From contig JBEKDT010000008.1 in NCBI GenBank assembly GCA_050014195.1, positions 64,001 to 128,000 on the forward strand: a stretch of DNA of 64,000 nucleotides, in the 5' to 3' direction. The position numbers and the translations under genes are program-made. Below are positions 35,172 through 59,182 of this stretch, piece by piece (position 1 is the stretch's first letter; each line of letters starts with the position of its first letter). The DNA comes from Desulfomonilia bacterium (lineage in GTDB: Bacteria; Desulfobacterota; Desulfomonilia; UBA1062). Below the pieces are notes generated by a model that saw only the letters and a list, made by a program, of their open reading frames with translations, did no database searches and was not told the DNA's origin.

Positions 35172-36632
35172 TTGAGGCTCAAGCGTGATCTGAGATACAC
35201 CGTGGAGGCCGGTGACACCAGTAAAACCATCCACTTCCACGACTTCCAGAAGACCGAGCATATCTGCCCGGTCAAGGATTACTCCCGTACCGGGGCATCC
35301 TTCTATCTTGAAGACGGCAGCCTCCTTCTGAAGATCGGAGACATCATCCCTGACCTTAAGTTCTACTCTTTCAACCAGGAAGTTCATGCCTCCGGGGCAA
35401 CCATCATCCATATCCAGGATGAGGAGCAGGGCGGTCAGGCGGTATCCTGCATCGGCTGTTCATACAATGACAAGTCCATGGATGTCTATTCCATCATAAG
35501 GACCGACAAGATCACCAAGCTCCAGAATGATTTTTTGGACTTTGTCCAGTCCATGGCCATTGAGGAGAACCTCGACCCGGAGTTCGTCAACATCACCTCC
35601 CACCTCCACTACATCCTAGACGGGTTTCAGGAGAGGCTAGTCCAGGACTTCCAAACCATACACAGCGAAGACGAGTCCCTTCAAGGCGCATTGGTGGAGA
35701 CCCTGCGGGAACTTGCCTTTGATGCATTGTTCGATGAGTTGAATCGCTATTATGACGATTTTACCAGGATCATCAGCCGTTTCGCCGACTCCAAACAGCA
35801 TTACATACATAGAGAATTCTTCCAGAAACGCCTTCATTCTTACCTGTCAAAGTCCAGGCTGTTCAACCGGAGCATCACCAAGCCTTTGGGGTATGCAGGC
35901 GATTACGAGATGATGAATATCATCTACCGCAACGCCTTCGAGGGCGAAGACCTTTTCTCTCAGGTGCTGAATAAAGTCGATTGCGAGGGCACTGCTTCGA
36001 GGGCCGTGAGAAACCGTCGGTCGTACTTATACAAGAAGCTTAAGGGTCTTGTAACAAACAATACTTCAAGCAATGACCTCAAGATCATGAGCGTGGCCTG
36101 CGGCCCGGCCCTTGAACTCGCCGACCTGCTCAAAAGTTTTGAAGGAAAGACCTTGCCGTTTCATGTTGAATTCATTGCCATGGACCAGGACAACCTTGCC
36201 CTTGAAGATGCCAAGGCCCGGACCAAACCGCTGGTGAAGGATATCCCTCAGATGAGGTTCCACTTTGAGCAGGACAACATCAAGCGGCTCATCGTAGAAA
36301 AAGGTAACAACAAAGGTATTTATGGCGAAGCGGATTTCGTCTATTCTGCGGGGCTGTTCGACTATCTCTCCGACAGGGCGTCCAACAGGCTCATCAAAAA
36401 ACTTTACAGCTTCCTCAAACCCGGCGGCCTCCTGGTGATAGGAAATTTCGGCCCATATAACCCACAGAGATTCATCATGGAATTCGGTGCAGAATGGTTC
36501 CTGATCCATCGGAACGAATTCGAGCTCAAGGCGCTTGCCGGCGATCTGCCGGGAAATCCCACCCTAATCGTAGAAAAGGAACCGGAGGGAGTAAATCTCT
36601 TTCTCAATATACTAAAGCCCGTAGATGCTTAA
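35172..36632 (+). CDS. PhcB-like class I SAM-dependent methyltransferase with a PilZ-like N-terminal domain
   Basis: KPLGYAGDYEM, RAVRNR, SVACGPA, YSAGLFDYLSD, NP...ME...EW.LIHR and GVNLF motifs recalled from Ralstonia PhcB; N-terminal KRDLR and DYSRTG; TTG start (in-frame stop upstream). Confidence 0.8.
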   Translation: MRLKRDLRYTVEAGDTSKTIHFHDFQKTEHICPVKDYSRTGASFYLEDGSLLLKIGDIIPDLKFYSFNQEVHASGATIIHIQDEEQGGQAVSCIGCSYNDKSMDVYSIIRTDKITKLQNDFLDFVQSMAIEENLDPEFVNITSHLHYILDGFQERLVQDFQTIHSEDESLQGALVETLRELAFDALFDELNRYYDDFTRIISRFADSKQHYIHREFFQKRLHSYLSKSRLFNRSITKPLGYAGDYEMMNIIYRNAFEGEDLFSQVLNKVDCEGTASRAVRNRRSYLYKKLKGLVTNNTSSNDLKIMSVACGPALELADLLKSFEGKTLPFHVEFIAMDQDNLALEDAKARTKPLVKDIPQMRFHFEQDNIKRLIVEKGNNKGIYGEADFVYSAGLFDYLSDRASNRLIKKLYSFLKPGGLLVIGNFGPYNPQRFIMEFGAEWFLIHRNEFELKALAGDLPGNPTLIVEKEPEGVNLFLNILKPVDA

Positions 36633-48200: not shown

Positions 48201-48224
48201 TTATGATACCTCAGGAGAGTGCTT

Positions 48225-48608
48225 ATGGCCAATATCTTCGGCAAAATCATCTCGGAAGTGACGGAGCACATGAACTACCGTACCTATCGCCAGGAGGTCA
48301 TATCCGGCAACATCGCCAATGTGGACACACCCGGCTACAGAGCCAAGGAGGCCCTGTTTGAAAGCGAGCTCGACTCCAAGCTCAAGCTTGCCACAACAAG
48401 CCCGCAACATTTGAAGAAATCGCCCGGGGAAAGTATGTTCAAAACCGTAGACGACCCATTTTCAAGGATCGGGAACGACTCCAACACCGTGGACATCGAC
48501 CGGGAAATGATGAAGCTCAACGAGAACCAGATCCTCTACAGCGCCTCGGCCGAGATCATCCAGACCAAACTCCAAGAGCTGAAAAACACCATAGGAGGCA
48601 TCCAATAA
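48225..48608 (+). CDS. flgB: Flagellar basal-body rod protein FlgB
   Basis: RQEVISGNIANVDTPGY and NTVDIDREM motifs. Confidence 0.95.
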   Translation: MANIFGKIISEVTEHMNYRTYRQEVISGNIANVDTPGYRAKEALFESELDSKLKLATTSPQHLKKSPGESMFKTVDDPFSRIGNDSNTVDIDREMMKLNENQILYSASAEIIQTKLQELKNTIGGIQ

Positions 48609-49012
48609 TGGACCTTTTCACAGCCATGGATATTAGTGCAAGCGGGCTTAGGGCTCAGCGGACCAGGATGAACGTCATCTCAAGCAATATCGCCAATGCC
48701 CACACCACGCATACCGATGAAGGCGGACCCTATAAGCGCAGGGATGTGATCCTGAAAGAGAGCTCCTTCGAAGGCCAGCTTGCAAGCGTCGATGTAGAGG
48801 GGATTAAGGCCGATTCCACCACGGGTGAACATATTTATGACCCGGGCAACCCCGATGCGGACGAGAAAGGTTACGTGACTATGCCCAATGTGAATCTCAT
48901 GGAGGAGATGGTGAATATGATGAATGCCACCAGGGCCTTTGAAGCCAACACCATTGCCGTGAAGGCGCAGAAAGACATGGCCCTGAAGGCACTGCAGATA
49001 GGAGGGAAGTAA
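48608..49012 (+). CDS. flgC: Flagellar basal-body rod protein FlgC
   Basis: SASGLRAQRTRMNVISSNIANA, GGPYKR and PNVN..EEM motifs. Confidence 0.96.
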   Translation: MDLFTAMDISASGLRAQRTRMNVISSNIANAHTTHTDEGGPYKRRDVILKESSFEGQLASVDVEGIKADSTTGEHIYDPGNPDADEKGYVTMPNVNLMEEMVNMMNATRAFEANTIAVKAQKDMALKALQIGGK

Positions 49013-49299
49013 TGCGTATCGACAAGTCTGATTTTACCCTTACAGGGCCCCTTACATCCAATGAGAAACCGAAAGGAAAGGGTCTGGATTTCGTTGATAC
49101 CCTCACCGATGCCATCAATTCAACGAACAGCCTGGTCAAGGAATCCGAGAAAGCGGCCACAGACCTATCTTCGGGCAAATCTCCCAATATTCATGAGGCC
49201 ATGATTGCCATGGAGAAAGCGGACATCTCCCTCCAGCTCCTCGTGAAGATGACCAGCAAGCTCATCGATGGCTACAACACGTTAAGTAGGTTGACATAG
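49012..49299 (+). CDS. fliE: Flagellar hook-basal body protein FliE
   Basis: IHEAMIAMEKA motif; position in the operon. Confidence 0.92.
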   Translation: MRIDKSDFTLTGPLTSNEKPKGKGLDFVDTLTDAINSTNSLVKESEKAATDLSSGKSPNIHEAMIAMEKADISLQLLVKMTSKLIDGYNTLSRLT

Positions 49300-49301
49300 C
49301 C

Positions 49302-50915
49302 ATGATAAACTTACTCAAACAGCTTCCGGCTAAGTTCGGCGCCATGAGTATGGGCCAGAGGTTCGGCCTTCTGGCCGTGGTCGGCCTTGCTGCTGCGGTC
49401 TTGGTAGTGAGCCTCATGTGGGCAACAGCCCCGAAATATCAGTACCTCTTTACCGACCTGAACGAGCAGGATGCCTCGCTGATCGTCCAGAACCTGAAGG
49501 AGAATCGCATCCCCTACCAGCTTACCAAGGGTGGTACCGCAATCATGATCCCGGAGGCCAACGTATACGAGACGCGCTTGTCGCTCGCAGGAAAGGGCCT
49601 GCCCAAGGGCGGTGTTGGAAAAGGGTTTGCGCTGTTCGATGAATCGGACTTCTCCCAGTCCGAGTTCGTACAGAAAATCAATTACCAAAGGGCGTTGCAG
49701 AACGAGCTTGCCAATACCATTATGTCCCTTGAAGCGGTCTCTTTTGCTCGAGTCCACATCGCCATGCCCAAGGAAAGCATCTTCATCGAGGATGAGAAGC
49801 CGGCCAAGGCCTCTATCGTCATCAAGATCAAGCCCGGCATGCAGATGAACCCTTCCCAGGTCCAGGGCATAGTATACCTTGTTGAAAAAAGTGTGCGGGG
49901 ACTGGACCCGGAGAATATCAGCATCGTAGACATCAAGGGAAAAGTCCTTTATGAGGGCAAAAAGAACAATGATTCGGTGGCCCTTGCCAGCGACCGTCTT
50001 GAATTCAAGCGGGCCATTGAAAACCAACTGCAGGAAAGGGCCCAGAGTCTCCTTGAGAAGATTGTAGGACCCCAGGCAGCCGTAGTGAAGGTAAGTGCGG
50101 ACGTGAACATGGACATGGTCAAGAGTGTCCAGGATAATTACGATCCCGAGATCCATGTGGTGCGCTCCGAAGAGGTCAAGAACCAGTATGCAGGCAAGGA
50201 AAAGAATACGCAGGGCGTTGCCGGAACGCCATCCAATCTGCCCACGGGAAAGGGAGGGCCTGAGGCAATCCCGCCGAACGGGGGATCGGGTGGAGAAAGC
50301 ATAGTCAGGAATTACGAGATCGGCAGAAACCAGACGGAACACGTCTTCTCTCCCGGGGATGTCAAACGGCTGACGGTATCTGTTGTAGTTGATGGGACAT
50401 ACAAGTCCGACAAGGGGGGTAACAAGCTGTTTGTCCCACGCCAGGCATCCGAACTCAAAGAGATCGAGAATGCGGTGAAGCAGACGGTCGGGTTCAATGC
50501 AGACCGTGAAGACATCATCTCGGTGTCCTGCATGCCCTTTGCCCAGGAGGACACCGACCTGGCAGCGCTTTCCGAAAAGGAAAAGAAGAAAGAATTCATC
50601 CTTACCCTGCTCAAACCGGCCGTGTTCCTCGTCGTAGTGATCCTTGTCCTGCTCTTCATAATCCGGCCAATGCTCAAATGGCTTAAGTCGGTGAGGGTGG
50701 TGGATCGGGTACATGCGCACGAAAGGGGTATCCCCATGGAGGACCGCGAGCTCCTTGAGGGCGGAGAGGAAGTGCCCCAGCTCGAAGTTGCTCCCAAGAG
50801 CGAGGAGATGAAACGGGCGGTCCATGGAAAGCGCAAGGCCATCGAACAAACGGCACGAAATGATATGAACACCGCCTCAGCGGTAGTGAAGTCCTGGCTT
50901 CAGGAGAATGTATAA
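49302..50915 (+). CDS. fliF: Flagellar M-ring protein FliF
   Basis: Two TM helices; GFALFD, NYQRALQNEL, ARVHIAMP and RLTVSVVVDG motifs. Confidence 0.96.
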   Translation: MINLLKQLPAKFGAMSMGQRFGLLAVVGLAAAVLVVSLMWATAPKYQYLFTDLNEQDASLIVQNLKENRIPYQLTKGGTAIMIPEANVYETRLSLAGKGLPKGGVGKGFALFDESDFSQSEFVQKINYQRALQNELANTIMSLEAVSFARVHIAMPKESIFIEDEKPAKASIVIKIKPGMQMNPSQVQGIVYLVEKSVRGLDPENISIVDIKGKVLYEGKKNNDSVALASDRLEFKRAIENQLQERAQSLLEKIVGPQAAVVKVSADVNMDMVKSVQDNYDPEIHVVRSEEVKNQYAGKEKNTQGVAGTPSNLPTGKGGPEAIPPNGGSGGESIVRNYEIGRNQTEHVFSPGDVKRLTVSVVVDGTYKSDKGGNKLFVPRQASELKEIENAVKQTVGFNADREDIISVSCMPFAQEDTDLAALSEKEKKKEFILTLLKPAVFLVVVILVLLFIIRPMLKWLKSVRVVDRVHAHERGIPMEDRELLEGGEEVPQLEVAPKSEEMKRAVHGKRKAIEQTARNDMNTASAVVKSWLQENV

Positions 50916-51931
50916 TGGGCAAGCTCAAGAAGGTTGACGGCCCCCAGAAGGCCGCTATCTTTCTCATGGCAATGGGTGACGAATTCACCCGGGCCATATT
51001 CAAGGGATTGACCGAACACGAAATGAAACTTCTCGGCAAACGCATGGCAGCCCTCGAAGATGTGACCATCCCGGTCGACACGGTCCAGAATATCATGGAC
51101 GAGTTCTTACAGTTGAGCTCCGAGGTGAGCGGTGTCACTGGCAAAGGCATCGAGTACCTGCGTGATGCCCTCGTCTCGTCATTAGGCGCTGATAAGGCAA
51201 AGCCTATCATGGATTCCATATCCCAGGCCATGGACACCGCTGCGTTCTCATCGCTGAGGGCCGTCGACGCATCGATTCTCGTTGACTATCTTAAGGGAGA
51301 GCATCCCCAGACCATAGCGCTGGTGCTGGCCCACCTGGATTATATGAAGGTCGCCCAGATCATAAAGGAGATGCCTGAGAAGCTCCAGCCGGAGATCGTC
51401 TTTCGTATCGCCAACCTCGGCATGGTGCCTGCAGGCGTCATCGAGGATGTGGATGACGTACTCAAGAAGGAGATCGAGGCCATGGGGAGCGTGGAAAGCA
51501 AGAAGCTCGGAGGCATCGAGACCGTGGCCGAAATCATGAACCAGCTTGACCATAACACCGAGAACAACATCTTCGCTTCATTGGAAGAGATAGATGCCGA
51601 TATGGCCGAAAACATCCGTCAGAAGATGTTTGTCTTCGAAGACCTCATCAACATCGACAACCGCGGCATCCAGACCATCCTCAAGGAGATCACGAACGAA
51701 GATCTGTCCCTGGCTCTCAAGACCTCCAGCGAGACGCTCAAGGCCCATATTCTCAAGAATATGTCTTCACGCGCCTCAGAGATGCTCCTGGAAGACATGG
51801 AGACCATGGGCCCGGTGAAGCTCTCGGATGTGGAGAACGCCCAGCAGAACATCGTACGCGTGGCAAGGAAGCTGGAGGCTGCCGGCAAGATCGTGATCAG
51901 CGGAAAGGGCGGAGAGGATGTCCTCATCTAG
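50915..51931 (+). CDS. fliG: Flagellar motor switch protein FliG
   Basis: KAAIFL, EHPQTIALVL, MFVFEDL and NMSSRA motifs. Confidence 0.97.
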   Translation: MGKLKKVDGPQKAAIFLMAMGDEFTRAIFKGLTEHEMKLLGKRMAALEDVTIPVDTVQNIMDEFLQLSSEVSGVTGKGIEYLRDALVSSLGADKAKPIMDSISQAMDTAAFSSLRAVDASILVDYLKGEHPQTIALVLAHLDYMKVAQIIKEMPEKLQPEIVFRIANLGMVPAGVIEDVDDVLKKEIEAMGSVESKKLGGIETVAEIMNQLDHNTENNIFASLEEIDADMAENIRQKMFVFEDLINIDNRGIQTILKEITNEDLSLALKTSSETLKAHILKNMSSRASEMLLEDMETMGPVKLSDVENAQQNIVRVARKLEAAGKIVISGKGGEDVLI

Positions 51932-52562
51932 AATCATCCGCAACAACGACAAAAAAGATTGTACGGTTACCCCCTATTGTATCAAGGAAATGCAGGACAA
52001 GGGCGGACTCAAGGATGTGCAGATGCAGGCCGACGCTATCCTGAAGAAGGCCGGCGCAGAAAAAGAGGCCATTGAGATGGAGGCCTATCGCAAAGGCCTT
52101 GAACAGGGCCAAGCCCAGGGACAGAAGATGGCGGCCAAGAAGATCGAACCCCTCATCCAGGCGGTTTCAAATGCCATTGAAGAGCTCAAAAAGATGAGGC
52201 AGCTTATCATCGAGAAGCACCAGGACCAGCTTCTTGAGATACTCATACTGATGGCGGAGAAGGTTATCCATCGGGAAATCCACCTCTCTCCGGACATCAT
52301 CTTGGATACTATCAGACAAGCCTGCACTCATCTCACCGAGACCGAAGAGATCCGCATGAGGATCCACCCTTCCGACTTTGAATATATCCGCGACATCGAG
52401 CGGATACTCTCGACACATCTCACAGGCAAGAAAAATGTCCACTTTGTCGAGGACGGAGCCATTGATCGCGGTGGAATCATTATCGACACGGAATTCGGCG
52501 AGATCGACGCGAGTATCCGGTCGCAGATTGATCATATGAGAGAGGTCCTGCTGGAAAAATGA
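51918..52562 (+). CDS. fliH: Flagellar assembly protein FliH
   Basis: AxxxG repeats; GGIIIDTEFGEIDAS. Confidence 0.9.
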   Translation: MSSSRIIRNNDKKDCTVTPYCIKEMQDKGGLKDVQMQADAILKKAGAEKEAIEMEAYRKGLEQGQAQGQKMAAKKIEPLIQAVSNAIEELKKMRQLIIEKHQDQLLEILILMAEKVIHREIHLSPDIILDTIRQACTHLTETEEIRMRIHPSDFEYIRDIERILSTHLTGKKNVHFVEDGAIDRGGIIIDTEFGEIDASIRSQIDHMREVLLEK

Positions 52563-53890
52563 CGGGGCTTAAGAGACATATCCTTGCCTTACGTGAGACT
52601 GATCCCATCCAGGTCAGAGGCAAGGTGACCAACATCGTGGGCCTTGTAGTGGAGGGTCACGGCCCGGGCAGCGCCATGGGCGGGATGTGCGAGATCTACT
52701 CCAAGGCCAGGAAAAACTCCATCATGGCAGAGGTGGTGGGCTTTCGTGACAAACGTGTGCTTTTAATGCCGCTGGGCGACCTGAGCGGGATAGGCCCGGG
52801 CAGCGTAATTATTGCCAGAAAATCGCAACCAGTAGTCAAGGTCGGCAATGACTTGCTCGGCAGGGTCATCGACGGCATGGGTGAGCCGTTGGATAGCAAG
52901 GGCCCACTCGTCCTCGATCATGAGATGCCTTTGTATGGAAACCCTTATAATCCCCTGAGGAAGAGGAGAATCAAGGAGTCGCTCGATCTTGGAATCAAGG
53001 CTATCAACGGCATCCTGACCGTAGGAAAGGGCCAGCGCATGGCCATTATGGCAGGCTCCGGCGTAGGTAAGAGCGTCCTCTTGGGCATGATTGCCCGCCA
53101 CACCAAGGCGGATGTGAACGTGATCGCACTCATCGGTGAAAGGGGAAGAGAAGTAAAGGAGTTCTTGGAAAGGGATTTGGGCGAAGAAGGGCTCAAGCGC
53201 TCCATAGTGGTAACCGCCATCTCGGACCAGCCTTCGCTCATCCGTATCAGGGGGGCTTATCTCGCCACTACCATTGCCGAATTCTTCAGGGACCAGGGCC
53301 TGGACGTTCTCCTTATGATGGACTCCATTACACGCTTCGCCATGTCCATGAGGGAGATCGGCCTGGCCGTCGGCGAGCCGCCCACTACCAAGGGATATAC
53401 CCCTTCCTGCTTCGCCAAGATGCCCAAGCTCTTGGAGCGGGTCGGGAACACCTCGTCCAAAGGGAGTATAACCGGATTATACACGGTGCTCGTCGAGGGT
53501 GATGACCTCACGGAGCCCGTAGCCGATGCCGTCCGCTCCATTGTGGACGGGCACATCGTACTCTCCCGCGATCTTGCAACCAGAGGCCACTACCCCGCCG
53601 TCGATATCCTCCGCAGCGTGAGCAGGGTCATGAGCGACATTGTAGCAGAAAAACACCTGAAGACGGCCCGAACCATCCAGTCCATTGCTGCAGTGTATGA
53701 AGAGGCAAAAGACCTCATCAATATTGGGGCCTATGTTGCAGGGAACAATCCTGAGATCGACAATGCGATCCACCACATCGATACCATCAATAATTTTCTA
53801 AAGCAGGACATCAATGAAAAGGCCACCATCGAACAGGCTGTAACCCAGATGAGTGCCATCGTGGACTCAAGGCATAAAGGGAATGCATAA
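52559..53890 (+). CDS. fliI: Flagellar export ATPase FliI
   Basis: AGSGVGKS, IGERGREV, MDSITRFA and DGHIVLSR motifs. Confidence 0.96.
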   Translation: MTGLKRHILALRETDPIQVRGKVTNIVGLVVEGHGPGSAMGGMCEIYSKARKNSIMAEVVGFRDKRVLLMPLGDLSGIGPGSVIIARKSQPVVKVGNDLLGRVIDGMGEPLDSKGPLVLDHEMPLYGNPYNPLRKRRIKESLDLGIKAINGILTVGKGQRMAIMAGSGVGKSVLLGMIARHTKADVNVIALIGERGREVKEFLERDLGEEGLKRSIVVTAISDQPSLIRIRGAYLATTIAEFFRDQGLDVLLMMDSITRFAMSMREIGLAVGEPPTTKGYTPSCFAKMPKLLERVGNTSSKGSITGLYTVLVEGDDLTEPVADAVRSIVDGHIVLSRDLATRGHYPAVDILRSVSRVMSDIVAEKHLKTARTIQSIAAVYEEAKDLINIGAYVAGNNPEIDNAIHHIDTINNFLKQDINEKATIEQAVTQMSAIVDSRHKGNA

Positions 53891-54331
53891 ATGGCCTTCA
53901 AGTTTAAGTTCGCAACATTGCTGAATGTGAGGAAGATACAGGAGAACATAGCCCTGCAGGCTTTCTCCCAGGCTCAGAGGTACTTAAGTTCGCTTAAGGC
54001 CATGAGGGAGCAGGTCTTAGCCAGAAGAGACATCCTCAGGGTAGAGCTCATGACCAGGATGAAACAGGGCTTAAGTGCCACGGAAGTCAAGATCTACTAT
54101 GACTACATTTCCCATCTGGAGCAAACCATAGAGCGTATTAATGAGAATATTAAGATCGCAGGGCAGCAGGTGGAAGAGAAGAGAAAAGAGCTATTAAAGG
54201 CCAAACGGGCCTCTACGGTCATCACAAGACTCAAGGAGATCCATCAGGCCAGGTTCGATGAGTCCGAGAGGAAGAAAGATATGGTCTTCCTCGATGAAAT
54301 CGCGATCCTTAAGGCTGGAGGTGAGAGATGA
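53891..54331 (+). CDS. fliJ: Flagellar export protein FliJ
   Basis: FKFKFATLL N-terminus, coiled coil and terminal LDE; follows fliI. Confidence 0.88.
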   Translation: MAFKFKFATLLNVRKIQENIALQAFSQAQRYLSSLKAMREQVLARRDILRVELMTRMKQGLSATEVKIYYDYISHLEQTIERINENIKIAGQQVEEKRKELLKAKRASTVITRLKEIHQARFDESERKKDMVFLDEIAILKAGGER

Positions 54332-54900
54332 AGGCAAAGATACTGCTGGGATTGGTGTTCATCAATCTTGTATTTATAGGCATCTACCTGGCGGTAAAAC
54401 CCACGCCGGTACAGGCAGGGAACCCTACAGCGAATAACCAGACGACCGTCAAAACCGAGCAGCAGCAACCGGCCCCTTCTCCCATAAGCCTTTCGCCTAC
54501 GGATCAGCTTGAGATCCTCAGGCAGAAGGAAGAGAGGCTCAAGGCCCGTGAAATGGAGCTCAAGGAGCTTGAGACGGAGGTCGAGGAGAAGATCAAGAAG
54601 CTGGAGACGATTGAATCCTCCATTAAAAATGACCTTGCCTCTTATAAAGTGGAGAGTAACGATCGAATCAAGCAACTCGTCAAGATCTATTCCTCCATGA
54701 AGCCGAATGCTGCAGCGAACCTGATGAATAACATCGATACGGATGTGGCTGTCCAGGTATTTATCGGAATGAAAGGAGACATTGCGGGCAGCATACTGTC
54801 CTACATGGAACCCGTAAAGGCCGCCGGTATCACACAGAGACTGGTTTACTACCGTGGAAGTAATACCACATCGACCGAGACGGCACCTGCCGAGAAATAA
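54328..54900 (+). CDS. MotE/MgtE_N-like flagellar-associated protein
   Basis: N-terminal TM, coiled coil, LVKIYSSMKPNAAA...ILSYMEP repeats. Confidence 0.8.
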   Translation: MKAKILLGLVFINLVFIGIYLAVKPTPVQAGNPTANNQTTVKTEQQQPAPSPISLSPTDQLEILRQKEERLKAREMELKELETEVEEKIKKLETIESSIKNDLASYKVESNDRIKQLVKIYSSMKPNAAANLMNNIDTDVAVQVFIGMKGDIAGSILSYMEPVKAAGITQRLVYYRGSNTTSTETAPAEK

Positions 54901-54996: not shown

Positions 54997-56730
54997 TTAC
55001 TGTGATGCTCGGGCAACCGAATGGAGTGTCGTCCTGTTTTCCTGGTCACGGAAGAGCTCTTCCCTGATCCTGCGGAATTCATCCTCATTCTTGAGAAATG
55101 CATCCACGATATCAGGGGCGAAGTGGGTGCCACTGCTTTCCACGATAATCTCTTTGGCAGCCTGATGTGAATACGCTTCTTTATAGACTCTCTTGGAGGT
55201 CAAGGCGTCATACACATCCGCCAAAGCCACAATCCGGGCGGACAGAGGGATCTGATCTCCCTTGAGACCTCGAGGATATCCTGTTCCATCCCACTTCTCA
55301 TGGTGGTAATAGGCGATTTCCTTTCCCAAGGTAAGGAAGGACTGTCCTTCGATCTTGGTTTCCACCTCTCTGAGGGCATCACCTCCCAGGGCAGAGTGGC
55401 GTTTGATGATATCGAACTCATCGGGGGTGAGCTTACCCGGCTTCAGGAGAATTGCGTCGGGGACTCCGACCTTCCCGATATCGTGGAGAATGGATGAATT
55501 ATAGATGTCGTCAATGTATTCAGGGGTAATATACCCGGCATAATCAGATCCTTTAGCAAGATCTTCAGCTAATATTTTACTATACTCACGGATCCTCTCA
55601 AGATGCGCCCCGGTGTCTGCATCTCGATACTCGGCGAGTTTTGCAAGCCCAAGGATCGTGGCATTGCGGGCGCTTTGGACCTTTTTATAGGATTCAAACA
55701 GGTCATGTTCGAGCTTCTTCCGGACCGTAATATCCCGGATCACGAGTTGGAAGCCAACGATCTGGTAATCCTTCATGATGCACTTGGCATTGCACTCCAC
55801 CTCATAGACCTTACCCCTCTTGTTGACGATCTTGAACTGGATATCCTTGACCATCTGCTCCACAGGCAGCCTGATGATCATCCGCTCCACAAGGGTCACG
55901 TCCGAAGGATGAACAAGGTTCAAGAATCTGATGTCGGCATTCTCTTCTGGGGCACCTACGATCTCATAATATTTAGGATTGCCCATGAGAATCTTGGAAT
56001 CTCTGTCTACTAAAAGTACAATGTCAATGATGTTCTCATAAAGTTCACGGTATCTGAGTTCGGATTCCTTGAGTTGATTCATCCTCTTTTCAACCTCTGA
56101 TTCGAGGTTGTGGGCATAGAAGGAAAGTTTTTCTGCTAAGGAATCCATTTCCGACTTGAGCTTGACTCCCCGTATACGTGACCGGGTATCCTCAAAGCAT
56201 TTAAGGATCACTATCACGATGAAAAAGGCGAAGAAGAAGCTGTTGCTGAAGAATATATTGGTGTTTTCAGGGGTCGCATGAGATAAAAGCACAATAGGCA
56301 CTGCATAAACGATATAGAGTACTACCCCCATAATGGCTGCCTGCATGGCATCAAGGGGTAGAATGACCGTCACCGCCACCAGTACCATCACCACGCCTAC
56401 ATAATAGAAGGAATCATATCCGCCCATGTGCACGCACATGAGGGTGATGGTCAGCCCCGATACAAGATAGGCTATTATTGATATAGGATAAGCGAATTTC
56501 CTCCCATAATTGGAGAAATAAATCCCAAGAAAAACACTTAAGATAGCTGCACATCCGATTCTATATAAGAAGAACCGGGCGAGGTGCTGGCGTACCACTA
56601 CATAGTCGAGAATGGAAAACAGAGGGATCAGAACTATCCCAATGAGGAGGATGGCAAGCACCCTCTGATAGTACAATTCCCGCGTCTCTTCAAGGAATCG
56701 CCCGTACCATGGTTCTTTTATTGAAGACAT
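54997..56730 (-). CDS. Membrane sensor-PAS-HD-GYP c-di-GMP phosphodiesterase
   Basis: About 6 TM N-terminal domain, coiled coil and PAS, then AEYRD..TGAH, HDIGK, HHEKWDGTGYP and ADVYDAL motifs. Confidence 0.92.
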   Translation of the reverse strand: MSSIKEPWYGRFLEETRELYYQRVLAILLIGIVLIPLFSILDYVVVRQHLARFFLYRIGCAAILSVFLGIYFSNYGRKFAYPISIIAYLVSGLTITLMCVHMGGYDSFYYVGVVMVLVAVTVILPLDAMQAAIMGVVLYIVYAVPIVLLSHATPENTNIFFSNSFFFAFFIVIVILKCFEDTRSRIRGVKLKSEMDSLAEKLSFYAHNLESEVEKRMNQLKESELRYRELYENIIDIVLLVDRDSKILMGNPKYYEIVGAPEENADIRFLNLVHPSDVTLVERMIIRLPVEQMVKDIQFKIVNKRGKVYEVECNAKCIMKDYQIVGFQLVIRDITVRKKLEHDLFESYKKVQSARNATILGLAKLAEYRDADTGAHLERIREYSKILAEDLAKGSDYAGYITPEYIDDIYNSSILHDIGKVGVPDAILLKPGKLTPDEFDIIKRHSALGGDALREVETKIEGQSFLTLGKEIAYYHHEKWDGTGYPRGLKGDQIPLSARIVALADVYDALTSKRVYKEAYSHQAAKEIIVESSGTHFAPDIVDAFLKNEDEFRRIREELFRDQENRTTLHSVARASQ

Positions 56731-56741
56731 ATCATTTCATT

Positions 56742-56768
56742 CTATCGGCAAATGATTGAGAAAATTAA
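56742..56768 (-). promoter_or_regulatory. Putative sigma28 (FliA) promoter of the HD-GYP gene
   Basis: TTAA-N15-GCCGATAG on the minus strand, 11 nt before the ATG. Confidence 0.55.
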
Positions 56769-56792: not shown

Positions 56793-57695
56793 TTAGAAAA
56801 GCTTAAGCACGTCATCAAAGGGCCTGGGTGAATCAAAATCAGGGTTATAGAGGGAAGGTGCCTCCATATCCTGGGCATAGATAGTCTCAAATCCCAGCGT
56901 GAAGGCCCTCTCAATCACCACCTGGTATTCGTCGGGGGTGATATGACGTTTCATCTCCTCAATATTCCCGATATAATATTGGGGATTATACTGTGACATG
57001 ATGCTCAGCGGTATCTCCAATGAGAGCTCTGCGAGGAACTCGATCACGGAAAACGGATTGGAGAGCATCGACGGCAGAACGAGATGCCGCACAATAAGGC
57101 CGCATATCGCCTTGCCTTCACAGTCGAGCTCGAGGGGACCTGTTGTTTCCCAGATATAGGTTATGGCCTGTCTTGCCATGTCCCAGTAGTCGTCAACCCC
57201 GCTTAAGGTCTTACCTATTGCATTATCCCCGTATTTGAGGTCCATGAGATAGATCTGTGCATTGCCTTTCCAGCGCTCCAGGCATTCTCGCGATTCATAG
57301 CCGCTTGAATTCATGAGGATAGGTATATTCAATCCCAATATGCGGGCTGATTCGATAGCAGCAAGCACAGAAGGTGTATAGTGGGTGGGGCTTACCAGAT
57401 TGATATTGGTGCATCCGGCATCCTCCAATTTAAGCATGGCATCTGCAAGCCTGTCGGGAGTGATGGGCCTACCCTTTAAGAACCGGCTTATCTGTTTGTT
57501 CTGGCAATAGCTGCACCGCAAAGGGCAACCGCAGAAGAATATGGCACCCGAACCTGAGCCCGTCACGAGAGGAGGCTCTTCACCTCTGTGAACGACCACG
57601 GCACCGACAAGAATCTCCTCACCTACCCTGCAGGCGCCTACACCCTTTGAACGGTCTATCCCGCACTGCCTGGGGCAGAGGGTACAATCCCTCAT
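56793..57695 (-). CDS. PflX-like radical SAM protein
   Basis: CTLCPRQC, GEEPP, CPLRCSYC, NINLVSPTHY, RHLVLP and MSQY motifs. Confidence 0.88.
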   Translation of the reverse strand: MRDCTLCPRQCGIDRSKGVGACRVGEEILVGAVVVHRGEEPPLVTGSGSGAIFFCGCPLRCSYCQNKQISRFLKGRPITPDRLADAMLKLEDAGCTNINLVSPTHYTPSVLAAIESARILGLNIPILMNSSGYESRECLERWKGNAQIYLMDLKYGDNAIGKTLSGVDDYWDMARQAITYIWETTGPLELDCEGKAICGLIVRHLVLPSMLSNPFSVIEFLAELSLEIPLSIMSQYNPQYYIGNIEEMKRHITPDEYQVVIERAFTLGFETIYAQDMEAPSLYNPDFDSPRPFDDVLKLF

Positions 57696-59182
57696 GATGC
57701 CCCTTTGAGATTCTCCAAGACAACCTTACCCTTTTCATCTCTTAAGATCTCGGGTACGAATTCCACCTTTCTGGGTGTTTTAAAAGGGGCAAGTTGTTTG
57801 CGTGCAAACTTCTTTATTTCGTCTTCTGTCAGATTCTCATCATCGCGTACCACGAAGGCCTTGATGATGGCACCTCTCATGAGGTCCGGTTCTCCGATGA
57901 TGGCGGAATCGCGTATACCGTCCATGGAATTGAGTACATTTACTACCTCACGGGAATAGACATTGAACCCTGAGGTGATCACCATGTCTTTCTTATATCC
58001 GGTGATGTAGATGAAGCCGTCTTCATCCATATATCCGAGGTCTCCGGTGTGGAGCCACCCGTCCGTGATGATGTCTTTTGTCTCCTGTTCATGATTGTAG
58101 TAGCCCTTCATGATGTTGGGCCCCTTAAAAAGGAGCTCCCCAGTCTCACCTGGTTTCAGGATATTCCCTGCATCGCCTTCAACCCTGCACGAAACGCCGG
58201 GCACGGTGGTGCCGATTGATGAAGGCTTTATGGGGAGGTGCTTCTGATTCACCGCGCAGACCGGAGATGCTTCGGTGATGCCGTAGCCCTGACGTATATC
58301 CGCATGAAACCGTTCCTTAAAGGAATTGTAGACCTCAATGGGCAGGGCTGATCCCCCGGCAATGAGCGTCTTCATGTGCGTATAGTCGATATCCGCCAGA
58401 TCAGGGTGATGTACCAGACCATAGAACAACGTAGGTACCGCACAAACCGCAGTGATGCCGCAATCGGTAAGGGCGTGGTGAAGCTCCCTGAAATCGAGTT
58501 TCTTCATCAGATAGATGGTGCCGCCGCATCGAAGCATGGAGAGCATGTTCACACTGGCGCTGAAGGAATGGAAACAGGGTATGACGGTAAGCGTGCTGTC
58601 GGTGTGGTCGATTTCCATGCATTTGGGCATCAACCCGGAGTTATGGTCGAGATTACCCTGGGTGAGCATGGCTCCCATGGGGTAGCCGGTGAGTCCTGAG
58701 GAGTAGATCATAACCGCTACGTCGTCTCTGTCCCTGTCCTCGATAATGCCGCTGCCGGTTCCTGAAACCCACTGGGAGAAGGTGCCGTCCTTGCCTACCG
58801 TTATGACGAATTCCTGCGGGCATTCCTGGGCGATTGTCTCATAGGTATCCCTGCTGTCGTGCTCGATGACTAGTGCCCTTGAGCCTGAATCGGTAAGGAT
58901 ATGCTTGAGCTCCCGTGAGGTGTAGGAAGGATTTACCGGTGTTACCACGGCGCCGATGCCGATGACGGCCATATAAGTGATGATAAATTCAGGCATATTG
59001 GGTAACATGAGGGTGACATGGTCGTCCCTTTTGATGCCGGCCTTCTTAAGCGAACTCCCAAGGGAATCGGTAAGTCTGTAGAGATCCGAAAAGGTGATCT
59101 CTCTGTCCCTAGACCTGATGGCCGTTTTAGCTGGCCTTTCCTGTGCATGAGTTTGCAGCCACGAATAGAGATTCATACCCAT
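57692..59182 (-). CDS. Long-chain fatty acid-CoA ligase-like ANL enzyme with a variant P-loop
   Basis: YSSGLTGYPMG, QGYGITEASP, LHTGDLG and KKDMVITSGFNVYSRE motifs; overlaps the pflX-like gene (ATGA). Confidence 0.88.
   Translation of the reverse strand: MGMNLYSWLQTHAQERPAKTAIRSRDREITFSDLYRLTDSLGSSLKKAGIKRDDHVTLMLPNMPEFIITYMAVIGIGAVVTPVNPSYTSRELKHILTDSGSRALVIEHDSRDTYETIAQECPQEFVITVGKDGTFSQWVSGTGSGIIEDRDRDDVAVMIYSSGLTGYPMGAMLTQGNLDHNSGLMPKCMEIDHTDSTLTVIPCFHSFSASVNMLSMLRCGGTIYLMKKLDFRELHHALTDCGITAVCAVPTLFYGLVHHPDLADIDYTHMKTLIAGGSALPIEVYNSFKERFHADIRQGYGITEASPVCAVNQKHLPIKPSSIGTTVPGVSCRVEGDAGNILKPGETGELLFKGPNIMKGYYNHEQETKDIITDGWLHTGDLGYMDEDGFIYITGYKKDMVITSGFNVYSREVVNVLNSMDGIRDSAIIGEPDLMRGAIIKAFVVRDDENLTEDEIKKFARKQLAPFKTPRKVEFVPEILRDEKGKVVLENLKGAS

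Follow-up and report, generated by a model that had tools for sequence, protein, structure and literature searches.

A predicted PhcS-clade membrane sensor fused to PAS and HD-GYP domains beside a flagellar operon of a Desulfomonilia bacterium

The window analysed here is a 64,000-nucleotide (nt) stretch of a Desulfomonilia metagenome-assembled genome (MAG; assembly GCA_050014195.1, contig JBEKDT010000008.1, positions 64,001 to 128,000). In it, a flagellar operon runs head-on into a gene for a six-helix membrane sensor joined to PAS and HD-GYP domains, 96 nt from the operon end, where an MgtE_N-like open reading frame (ORF) terminates at 54900 (Table 1). The ORF list and the translation identify the sensor gene as a real gene, and its 65 homologues, recovered from 2277 candidates searched, are mostly 573–577 amino acids (aa) long and have the identical architecture. 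Residues 1–18 are kept in the 32 orthologues that were aligned (of 66 sequences in hand), and the ATG at 56730 is therefore taken as the start; a TTG at codon 19, used by some database entries, was rejected on the same grounds. Two sigma-54 activators precede the flagellar operon. The convergent arrangement with this operon, pointed out in the initial annotation, is seen in the window and is conserved: among the 31 orthologue genomes, 19 (from three genera) have fliG and the sensor gene on one contig, 4.4–7.8 kb apart, and in the other 12 fliG is on a different contig or was not found.

The membrane part of the protein is followed by a helical linker, whose stretch LS(F/Y)YAHNLE.EVEKR...ESELRYRELYENI is nearly invariant among the orthologues, and by a PAS domain recognized both by Pfam PF00989 (E 4.5e-9; 36.8 bits against a cut-off of 22.6) and by the NCBIfam sensory_box model TIGR00229 (E 1.2e-16; 61 bits against a cut-off of 22.9). 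Pfam HD_5/HD matches residues 375–540 (E 4e-31), and the NCBIfam matches, besides the S-box in the PAS domain, include part of a model for an HD-GYP phosphodiesterase family. Neither Pfam nor NCBIfam showed HisKA or HATPase in the window protein.

Table 1. Features of the sensor locus and of the candidate synthase gene in the window
Feature	Coordinates	Strand	Basis
Whole gene: PhcS-clade six-transmembrane-helix sensor + PAS + HD-GYP, 577 aa	54997..56730	-	ORF list, translation
Sensor domain, residues 1-200, six membrane helices, short loops	56131..56730	-	hydropathy, AlphaFold2 model, hhalign
Helical linker from membrane helix 6 to PAS, residues 201-225	56056..56130	-	AlphaFold2 model, orthologue alignment
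PAS domain, residues 226-334	55729..56055	-	Pfam, NCBIfam
HD-GYP phosphodiesterase domain, residues 349-556	55063..55686	-	PDB sequence matches, Pfam
Predicted sigma-28-type promoter: TTAA(T), 15 nt, GCCGATAG, 11 nt to ATG	56742..56768	-	sequence, orthologue conservation
flgB, flgC, fliF, fliG, fliH, fliI, fliJ + MgtE_N-like ORF	48219..54900	+	Pfam
PhcB-type S-adenosylmethionine (SAM) methyltransferase with PilZ-like N-terminus, candidate signal synthase	35172..36632	+	reciprocal single matches with a Ralstonia-genus PhcB-like gene

Hydropathy places six hydrophobic segments at about residues 24–42, 53–71, 82–100, 109–127, 131–149 and 158–176, with every loop at most 10 aa long. An AlphaFold2 model built from 24 aligned domains (mean predicted local distance difference test score 78.7; predicted template-modelling score 0.70) has helices at 7–45, 50–72, 80–102, 108–123, 128–149 and 154–199, the last of which continues into the cytoplasm. 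Both agree with the N-terminal domain of about six transmembrane (TM) helices proposed in the initial annotation. The motifs that it listed are all present in the translation and in the order given: L41-D42-Y43, F53...R57, Y75-G76-R77, G104..S107.Y109-Y110.G112, L124-P125, Y139..Y142, N163-S164.F166 and R185.R187...L191-K192.E194. They are mostly invariant or nearly so in the 32 orthologues and are therefore not a product of chance.

Residues 1–200 had no Pfam match at E <= 10, and searches of Pfam and NCBIfam with the N-terminus alone gave nothing meaningful. A six-frame search of the whole genome with the family profile at E <= 10 returned the window sensor alone. Residues 1–227 are matched in 51 of the 122 genomes of the class, by orthologues of about 575–590 aa and by paralogues that are 18–30% identical and lie in ORFs of 465–1362 aa. 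The outputs attached to the sensor in eleven paralogue ORFs (14 stretches were taken; one truncated and two near-duplicate stretches were excluded) were PAS/GAF-HisKA-HATPase-REC, HisKA-HATPase-REC, PAS alone or GGDEF. Profile A2, a 24-row alignment of the domain from Desulfomonilia proteins only, matched 5186 of 1.84 billion representative proteins at E <= 1e-3, 2948 at 1e-10 and 647 at 1e-30, and the domain was nearly always N-terminal. The first 70 matches listed included 45 with HisKA, 30 with REC, 34 with PAS, nine with GGDEF, and two each with EAL, SpoIIE and HD_5; the sensor domain is a promiscuous module. Pfam AC_N, the adenylyl-cyclase N-terminal family, weakly matched eight of the 70 listed members. 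PF24820, found in 12 of the 70, was set aside as a soluble PAS-like domain that occurs in many copies per genome and is unrelated to the membrane part.

The initial annotation had assigned the membrane domain to the type found in PhcS of Ralstonia. The Ralstonia genus was reached through an rpoD primer from Tables 3 and 4, in the available part of PMC11960443, which led to a Ralstonia syzygii record (L048, genome G413). The phcS start primer from the same part of that source had no exact match in the genome contigs, and profile A2 gave no match in this wilt-complex genome, where only two of six candidates were scored. Across the genus, 30 genomes were searched and 29 scored, and a single ORF was matched in 17 of them; 16 of these 17 matches had E <= 4e-18 over profile positions 4–199, in ORFs of 442–490 aa. 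Against a clade-only profile, the E-values of the Ralstonia-genus PhcS orthologues were 1e-18 to 1e-21. One match (locus L081) is a 442-aa kinase with a His in LHEINNP at position 230, which is the phospho-His reported for PhcS in the part of PMC11960443 available; it follows a gene for a 470-aa methyltransferase and precedes one for a REC-HisKA protein, and a phcB-phcS-phcR gene order is described in the available parts of PMC7694676 and PMC10653808. Because of this operon order, the length of 442 aa and His230, the kinase was taken as the PhcS orthologue. Profile-profile alignment with hhalign of A2 and the N-termini of seven Ralstonia-genus PhcS proteins (alignment A4) gave a probability of 98.6% and an E-value of 6.3e-16 over 181 columns. 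BLASTP aligned window residues 1–200 with PhcS residues 1–215 end to end at 26% identity with four gaps (E 1e-13), a higher identity than the 18–22% found with the kinase paralogues of its own class.

A tree of 79 sensor domains is split in two by a branch of length 1.83 with a Shimodaira–Hasegawa-like approximate likelihood-ratio test (SH-aLRT) value of 100. The PhcS side comprises 17 rows of the HD-GYP/GGDEF type, the seven PhcS rows and 16 of the 19 sensors encoded next to a PhcB-like gene, and the opposite side comprises the kinase paralogues of the class, 24 representatives and the other three PhcB-adjacent sensors. Eight residues mark the PhcS side: F53 (40 of 40 rows), M98 (39), P125 (39), G104 (36), F160 (35), R185 (33), Y43 (32) and Y139 (31). 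Each occurs in 0–5% of the 39 rows on the other side, and the window protein has all eight. D42, R57, Y109, G112 and F166, polar or aromatic residues within the membrane, are invariant throughout the family. Profile search, hhalign, BLASTP and clade residues thus agree with the proposed PhcS homology, and by these sequence comparisons the window sensor is assigned to the PhcS clade of six-helix domains. We are highly confident of the architecture, homology and genomic context of the window protein as a whole.

Other members of this clade are fused to GGDEF domains, either directly (L039 in G386:C23 and G387:C34; 377 aa, 38–39% identity) or through a PAS domain (protein P0063; 529 aa, 48% identity). 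Genomes G386 and G387 carry the GGDEF and HD-GYP forms alike, and opposing enzymes may there read one signal. The NCBIfam RegB/PrrB redox-kinase model aligned with PhcS orthologues from residue 12 (L081:1480-2805) and residue 64 (L079:1453-2793), in alignments that take in the membrane part, at 61–67 bits, far under the cut-off of 350.

A better fit to an unrelated generic membrane sensor family such as MASE or 5TM, together with a lack of the PhcS residues, had been named at the outset as the outcome that would speak against PhcS homology. The family that came up was MASE8 (PF20968), a precomputed mark on many homologues, and the nearest ESM-Atlas cluster is labelled 'MASE8 domain-containing' (score 0.96). 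The MASE8 model gave no match to the window protein at E <= 10 and did not reach its gathering score; it had no match over the cut-off in the genome of the window, none at E <= 1 in eight homologues and none over the cut-off at the PhcS loci of 27 scored Ralstonia-genus genomes, and it passed the cut-off in one of 301 genomes of the phylum. The outcome named at the outset was thus not obtained. A relationship at profile level does exist, since hhalign aligned A2 with one member that passes the MASE8 threshold at 96.9% (E 1.8e-10, 151 columns). MASE8 is therefore a distant relative rather than a rival or unrelated family, and the window protein is not a member of it.

Only one solved protein was matched by profile A2, ImcA (PA1851) of Pseudomonas aeruginosa (8wcn; E 2.5e-5, positions 4–197), and Foldseek with the modelled sensor also ranked 8wcn first (E 6.9e-3, TMq 0.73). 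The model superposes on 8wcn with Z 17.6 and 2.8 A over 196 of 200 residues. Adenylyl cyclases follow with Z 17.1 for AC9 (7pd4, chain residues 97–321), 15.9 for 6r3q, 15.7 for AC5 (8sl4), 13.2 for AC8 (8buz) and 9.7 for Cya of Mycobacterium tuberculosis (7yzk), and the first unrelated helical bundle scored 7.7. AC9, AC5 and AC8 were matched through their first membrane half, almost as well as ImcA. Sequence identity in the adenylyl-cyclase rows was 7–12% and the Foldseek E-values were weak (0.65–1.8). These superpositions, of a model on solved structures, show a shared fold only, which agrees with the weak AC_N matches and is no proof of homology.

Residues 340–577 match PDB entries 4r8z (PA4781; E 1.6e-51), 4mcw (PmGH; E 1e-41) and the cyclic GMP-AMP (cGAMP) phosphodiesterase 5z7c (E 1.7e-33). 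The HD dyad H416-D417 and the stretch H476-H477-E478-K-W-D481-G-T-G484-Y485-P486 are intact, the definition of the dyad and of the HHExh(D/N)GxGYP motif being that given in the accessible part of 10.1101/2021.11.05.467447. Residues kept in the orthologues are D372, H376, H416-D417, K420, K430-P-G432, H445, H476-H477-E478, D481, G482, G484-Y485-P486 and D505. D372 aligns with the Glu of the DPETQNH stretch of PmGH, taken as E185 by the numbering of the paper, which is offset from the chain index. In comparison with 4r8z and 4mcw, the full set of metal and substrate ligands is present, including the trinuclear-type acidic residue D372 and the KPG motif. The catalytic motifs are thus as complete as initially annotated, and the enzyme should, from its residues, be active. 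The homologous catalytic domains of PA4781 and PmGH are preceded by REC or GAF-type modules, unlike the membrane sensor of the window protein.

A candidate for the source of a signal lies elsewhere in the window. The PhcB-like protein of locus L081 had a sole match in the window genome at E <= 0.01, the methyltransferase gene of Table 1 (E 6.6e-37), and the reverse search into that Ralstonia-genus genome returned the phcB locus only (E 1.6e-36). The two proteins are 31% identical over 267 aa, including KPLGYAGDYEM before the methyltransferase fold. Many orthologues bear the JGI label 'extracellular factor (EF) 3-hydroxypalmitic acid methyl ester biosynthesis protein', and a search for PhcB-like proteins gave 1391 at E <= 1e-10 (7998 candidates scored). 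The head of the window protein (35172-35561, plus strand) is PilZ-like and contains D36-x-S-x-x-G41, and four of five orthologues score 25.9–31.4 bits with the Pfam PilZ model. The N-terminus of the Ralstonia-genus PhcB-like protein had no Pfam match. In genome G220, the head of the PhcB-like protein (L140:5748-6167, minus strand) is a CRP-type cyclic-nucleotide-binding domain (PDB 6dt4, E 8.8e-6).

The sensor profile and the PhcB-like query each find a single gene in the window genome. Of the 52 genomes of family f1, that of the window among them, 40 carry a PhcB-like gene and 31 a sensor orthologue (called at E <= 1e-50), and all 31 belong to the 40. The orthologue is absent from every one of the 12 genomes that lack a PhcB-like gene, nine of which have fliG. 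PhcB-like genes occur in 37 of the 401 genomes sampled from the phylum (25 of 254 genera). At 24 loci outside f1, the 1.5-kb flanks of the PhcB-like gene were searched with the sensor profile, and 20 contained a sensor domain, in most cases immediately downstream and in the same orientation. The outputs of these 20 sensors, assigned by phmmer with two queries, the window HD-GYP domain and a same-phylum kinase core, were HD-GYP in five (three genera) and kinase in 12, and three received no assignment; the PhcS transmitter, tried as the kinase-core query, was too weak on truncated ORFs and was replaced by the same-phylum queries. Full ORFs are available for a PhcB-like gene followed after a 3-nt gap by one for a 570-aa sensor-HD-GYP protein (G160), and for another followed by a hybrid kinase gene (G299). 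In G220 the PhcB-like gene is followed by one for a 589-aa sensor-PAS-HD-GYP protein that is 52% identical to the window protein over 558 aa with two gaps. We consider a link between the window sensor and the product of its PhcB-like enzyme slightly better than an even bet.

Further genes accompany some of these pairs. Downstream of the G220 pair is a sigma-54 activator (L140:655-2724, minus strand; PDB 1ojl, E 9.4e-78), and downstream of the G160 pair a second HD-GYP protein of 609 aa (L141:973-2799, minus strand; 4r8z, E 3.8e-38). Three genomes of the class have a PhcB-like gene beside a hybrid kinase with a sensor of the other, kinase-type clade, in divergent (G377:C5:20665-24551 and G380:C28:2727-5360) or convergent orientation (G356:C18:297617-300800); the best-scoring kinase-type adjacent rows, L102 (G380), L135 and L136, are presumed to be the three adjacent sensors outside the PhcS side. 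A PhcB-like gene with an in-frame TGA (G369:C59:18525-19979) was found in a genome without a sensor orthologue.

The sensor gene is preceded by a putative sigma-28-type promoter, on the minus strand, with TTAA(T) at 56768-56764, a 15-nt spacer and GCCGATAG at 56749-56742, 11 nt before the ATG. The sigma-28 consensus is TAAA-N15-GCCGATAA, which the -10 element matches at seven of eight bases and the -35 element at three of four (as TTAA at 15 nt or TAAT at 14 nt). FliA is encoded in the genome (TIGR02479, 276 bits against a cut-off of 189.6), and the identical -10 element with TAAA at 15 nt precedes two Flagellin_N/C genes of the genome. Two of the 30 orthologue loci had no resolved start and were excluded; the other 28 were anchored at the ATG, and in 25 of them CCGATA ends 11–12 nt upstream of it, with flanks that diverge between genera. 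TAAA stands at 15–16 nt in 11 of the anchored loci, with TTAA/TAAT variants in most others. The sigma28-like promoter of the initial annotation is hence backed by a motif that is conserved at these 25 loci and also precedes flagellin genes. Sigma-28 transcripts begin about 7–9 nt past the -10 element, and the transcript is therefore predicted to be nearly leaderless. A scan with sigma-70 promoter and terminator consensus sequences near the gene gave nothing above shuffled expectation, and no RNA dataset containing the stretch was found.

In one orthologue (L010, G392:C19) an AGGAGG stands between GCCGATAG and the ATG, and would fall outside a transcript from that promoter. The combination TAAAG...GCCGATAG was also found 18 and 47 nt before two genes for T2SSE ATPases with an MshEN domain (L105, G000:C9:138550-140350; L106, G000:C14:76800-78500), MshEN being a known cyclic di-GMP (c-di-GMP)-binding domain, and a similar motif precedes an NlpC/P60 gene (L108). 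Genome-wide, the sigma-28-type motif occurs at 25 sites against about 16 expected by a rough estimate, which is a modest enrichment. Upstream of the sensor gene, at 56793-59182 on the minus strand and 62 nt away, are genes for a radical-SAM protein (300 aa) and an AMP-binding acyl-activating enzyme (496 aa) that overlap by 4 nt; a role of these two genes in signal synthesis was considered and dropped, as the radical-SAM-like gene is the upstream neighbour only among the loci of this genus. The DNA of the stretch is present in five DNA datasets not marked as possible sources, which are peat or wetland metagenomes.

These features can be combined in a model in which the window protein would be a dimeric one-component receptor of the inner membrane. 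Its PhcS-clade six-helix sensor, almost devoid of periplasmic loops, would detect a hydrophobic signal within the membrane, and the change would travel through the conserved helical linker and the PAS domain to the trinuclear-type, catalytically complete HD-GYP domain, which would hydrolyse c-di-GMP. With its own sigma-28 (FliA) promoter close to the ATG, and hence a nearly leaderless mRNA, the receptor would be made together with flagellin, late in flagellar assembly. The likeliest signal would be the product of the single PhcB-type methyltransferase, by analogy with PhcB a 3-hydroxy fatty acid methyl ester or similar methyl ester, and through the PilZ-like domain of the synthase c-di-GMP may feed back on signal production. 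The reading we marginally favour over all others together is that of a c-di-GMP phosphodiesterase which belongs to the late flagellar regulon and is gated by a signal, most likely the PhcB-like product; within it we infer the identity of the ligand, the sign of the control and dimerisation. That the ligand is specifically a 3-hydroxy fatty acid methyl ester, as the analogy might suggest, is rather doubtful.

Several points weigh against this model. In the window, 18 kb separate the PhcB-like gene from the sensor gene; the former sits among housekeeping genes rather than in an operon with the sensor, and a conserved order of the chromosome may be all that the conserved spacing shows; the PilZ score of the window synthase is 21.8 bits, just below the Pfam cut-off of 22.5. 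Nine genomes of f1 have the PhcB-like gene alone, without the HD-GYP orthologue (four of the nine are less than 90% complete), and the co-occurrence in f1 is suggestive only, as related genomes are not independent and the counts overstate the case. The proteins standing in for PhcS are orthologues from genomes of the genus other than those of the wilt pathogens. The 79-row tree comes from a quick IQ-TREE search (LG+G4), and its PhcB-adjacent rows were picked for adjacency, so that it informs on placement and not on the frequency of neighbours; an earlier 105-row tree, with three groups only, had the identical main split and a long-branch warning. In ImcA, the role described for the six TM helices in the accessible part of PMC10904736 is in activity and partner binding, not in binding a membrane ligand. 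As for the promoter, the -35 element in the genus of the window is TTAA/TAAT rather than TAAA, and the FliA dependence, the transcription start and the leaderless transcript are predictions read from the DNA.

In an alternative that follows the case of ImcA, the six-helix domain would serve mainly as an anchor for dimerisation and partner docking, and sensing, for example of redox state, oxygen or a metabolite, would fall to the PAS domain. The protein would then be a c-di-GMP phosphodiesterase of the flagellar regulon with no tie to a PhcB-made signal. ImcA is the closest solved relative, and its six-TM domain is a homodimer interface that also binds the TM region of IsmP, with no membrane ligand reported in the part of PMC10904736 available; moreover, the PAS domain is well conserved in the orthologues, and the PhcB-like gene is not adjacent in the window genome. 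An anchor is, however, hard to square with D42, R57, Y109, G112 and F166 being invariant family-wide in the membrane helices, with the PhcS-clade-specific residues of the window protein, or with the 20 of 24 loci at which sensor and PhcB-like gene are neighbours. Two of the complete PhcB-adjacent ORFs (L117 and L120; 460 and 427 aa) match the HD-GYP query and not the PAS query. We regard this alternative as unlikely.

About as improbable, in our judgement, is a sensor that reads something else in the membrane, for example the make-up of the bulk lipid, a quinone or a fatty-acid signal of foreign origin, in which case the co-occurrence with PhcB would reflect shared clade ancestry only. The PhcB-less members of the family fall on the opposite side of the branch with an SH-aLRT of 100, and the f1 orthologue is absent from all 12 genomes without a PhcB-like gene, nine of which are flagellated; yet the family is very large, with 5186 representatives at E <= 1e-3, and many members are found in PhcB-less genomes, for example in the genera g213 (kinase-type members in 7 of 8 genomes, a PhcB-like gene in none of the 8) and g7 (8 of 14 and none of 14). 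The sub-threshold alignment of the RegB/PrrB redox-kinase model with a PhcS orthologue from residue 12 would also suit such a cue. It is very improbable, finally, that the HD-GYP domain hydrolyses 3'3'-cGAMP rather than c-di-GMP: some HD-GYP proteins do hydrolyse cGAMP, according to the accessible part of 10.1101/2021.11.05.467447, and 5z7c is matched at E 1.7e-33, but the c-di-GMP enzymes 4r8z (1.6e-51) and 4mcw (1e-41) fit better, relatives fuse the PhcS-clade sensor to GGDEF cyclases, and the candidate synthase bears a PilZ-like domain.

The genome offers a concrete candidate pair of one synthase and one receptor. If the window protein is indeed a phosphodiesterase gated by the PhcB-type product, a single protein would lead from a quorum-type lipid signal to the control of motility in peat or wetland anaerobes. 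PhcS is the only member of this large family with a known ligand class in the literature searched, its membrane domain has no Pfam model at threshold, and the present finding ties the PhcS-type domain to a second output, c-di-GMP hydrolysis. A broader proposal, tentative and with less than an even chance in our estimate, is that Phc-type signalling, instead of being confined to Ralstonia and its betaproteobacterial relatives, is a widespread module of the Desulfobacterota composed of a PhcB-type methyltransferase and a PhcS-clade receptor. One branch would have lost the phosphorelay and would drive an HD-GYP domain directly, so that a self-made lipid-like signal would set c-di-GMP in one step. 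In the lineage of the window the receptor gene would have come to lie where the flagellar operon ends, with sigma-28 in control, and through the synthase heads (PilZ here, cyclic-nucleotide-binding in G220) the nucleotide messengers would act back on the signal. Since the model has the fold of the orphan six-helix halves of mammalian adenylyl cyclases, a member with a defined ligand would also be a tractable model for those halves as lipid receptors. What those membrane domains sense is an open question in the available parts of PMC12414865, PMC4821796 and PMC9433096, and the common fold bears on it (as framed in the first two).

Compared with known systems, the window protein has a place of its own. 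A literature search joining PhcS with HD-GYP returned two general reviews only. ImcA is likewise a c-di-GMP enzyme with a six-helix domain, described in the accessible part of PMC10904736 as a homodimer held through this domain, on which its activity and its contact with the TM region of IsmP depend; its output, in contrast, is a GGDEF cyclase controlled by IsmP upon iron, and that part reports no membrane ligand. Mammalian AC9, AC5 and AC8 and M. tuberculosis Cya have a six-helix membrane fold that matches the modelled sensor, but their output is a cyclase homology domain. MASE8 is related at profile level, although its Pfam model reaches neither the window protein nor the PhcS loci. Ralstonia PhcS itself has a homologous sensor with common clade residues, on the same side of the main branch of the tree, and the window genome also encodes a PhcB-type methyltransferase; PhcS, however, carries a histidine-kinase transmitter where the window protein has PAS and HD-GYP. 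Unlike in the Phc system, the sensor gene stands apart from that of the methyltransferase and lies by a flagellar operon under a sigma-28-type promoter. It belongs to a Desulfomonilia MAG, whereas the phc cluster is reported in PMC10653808 to be restricted to Betaproteobacteria among 6,937 Pseudomonadota genomes, and the range of Phc signalling would extend beyond this if the link holds. Lacking a kinase, the window protein falls outside the two-component Phc system, though the signal that it reads may be of the same kind. In RpfC/RpfG and RpfR, a fatty-acid-type diffusible signal (DSF) controls c-di-GMP turnover, and the RpfG enzyme is a REC-HD-GYP protein; the proposed logic of a fatty-acid-type signal leading to c-di-GMP hydrolysis would be analogous, but the sensor domains differ, and these systems consist of two components (RpfC/RpfG) or of a cytoplasmic PAS-GGDEF-EAL protein (RpfR). 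The predicted timing of expression resembles that of the c-di-GMP phosphodiesterase PdeH (YhjH) of E. coli, which is made along with the late flagellar genes that depend on FliA and is, by contrast with the window protein, a soluble stand-alone EAL protein without a sensor.

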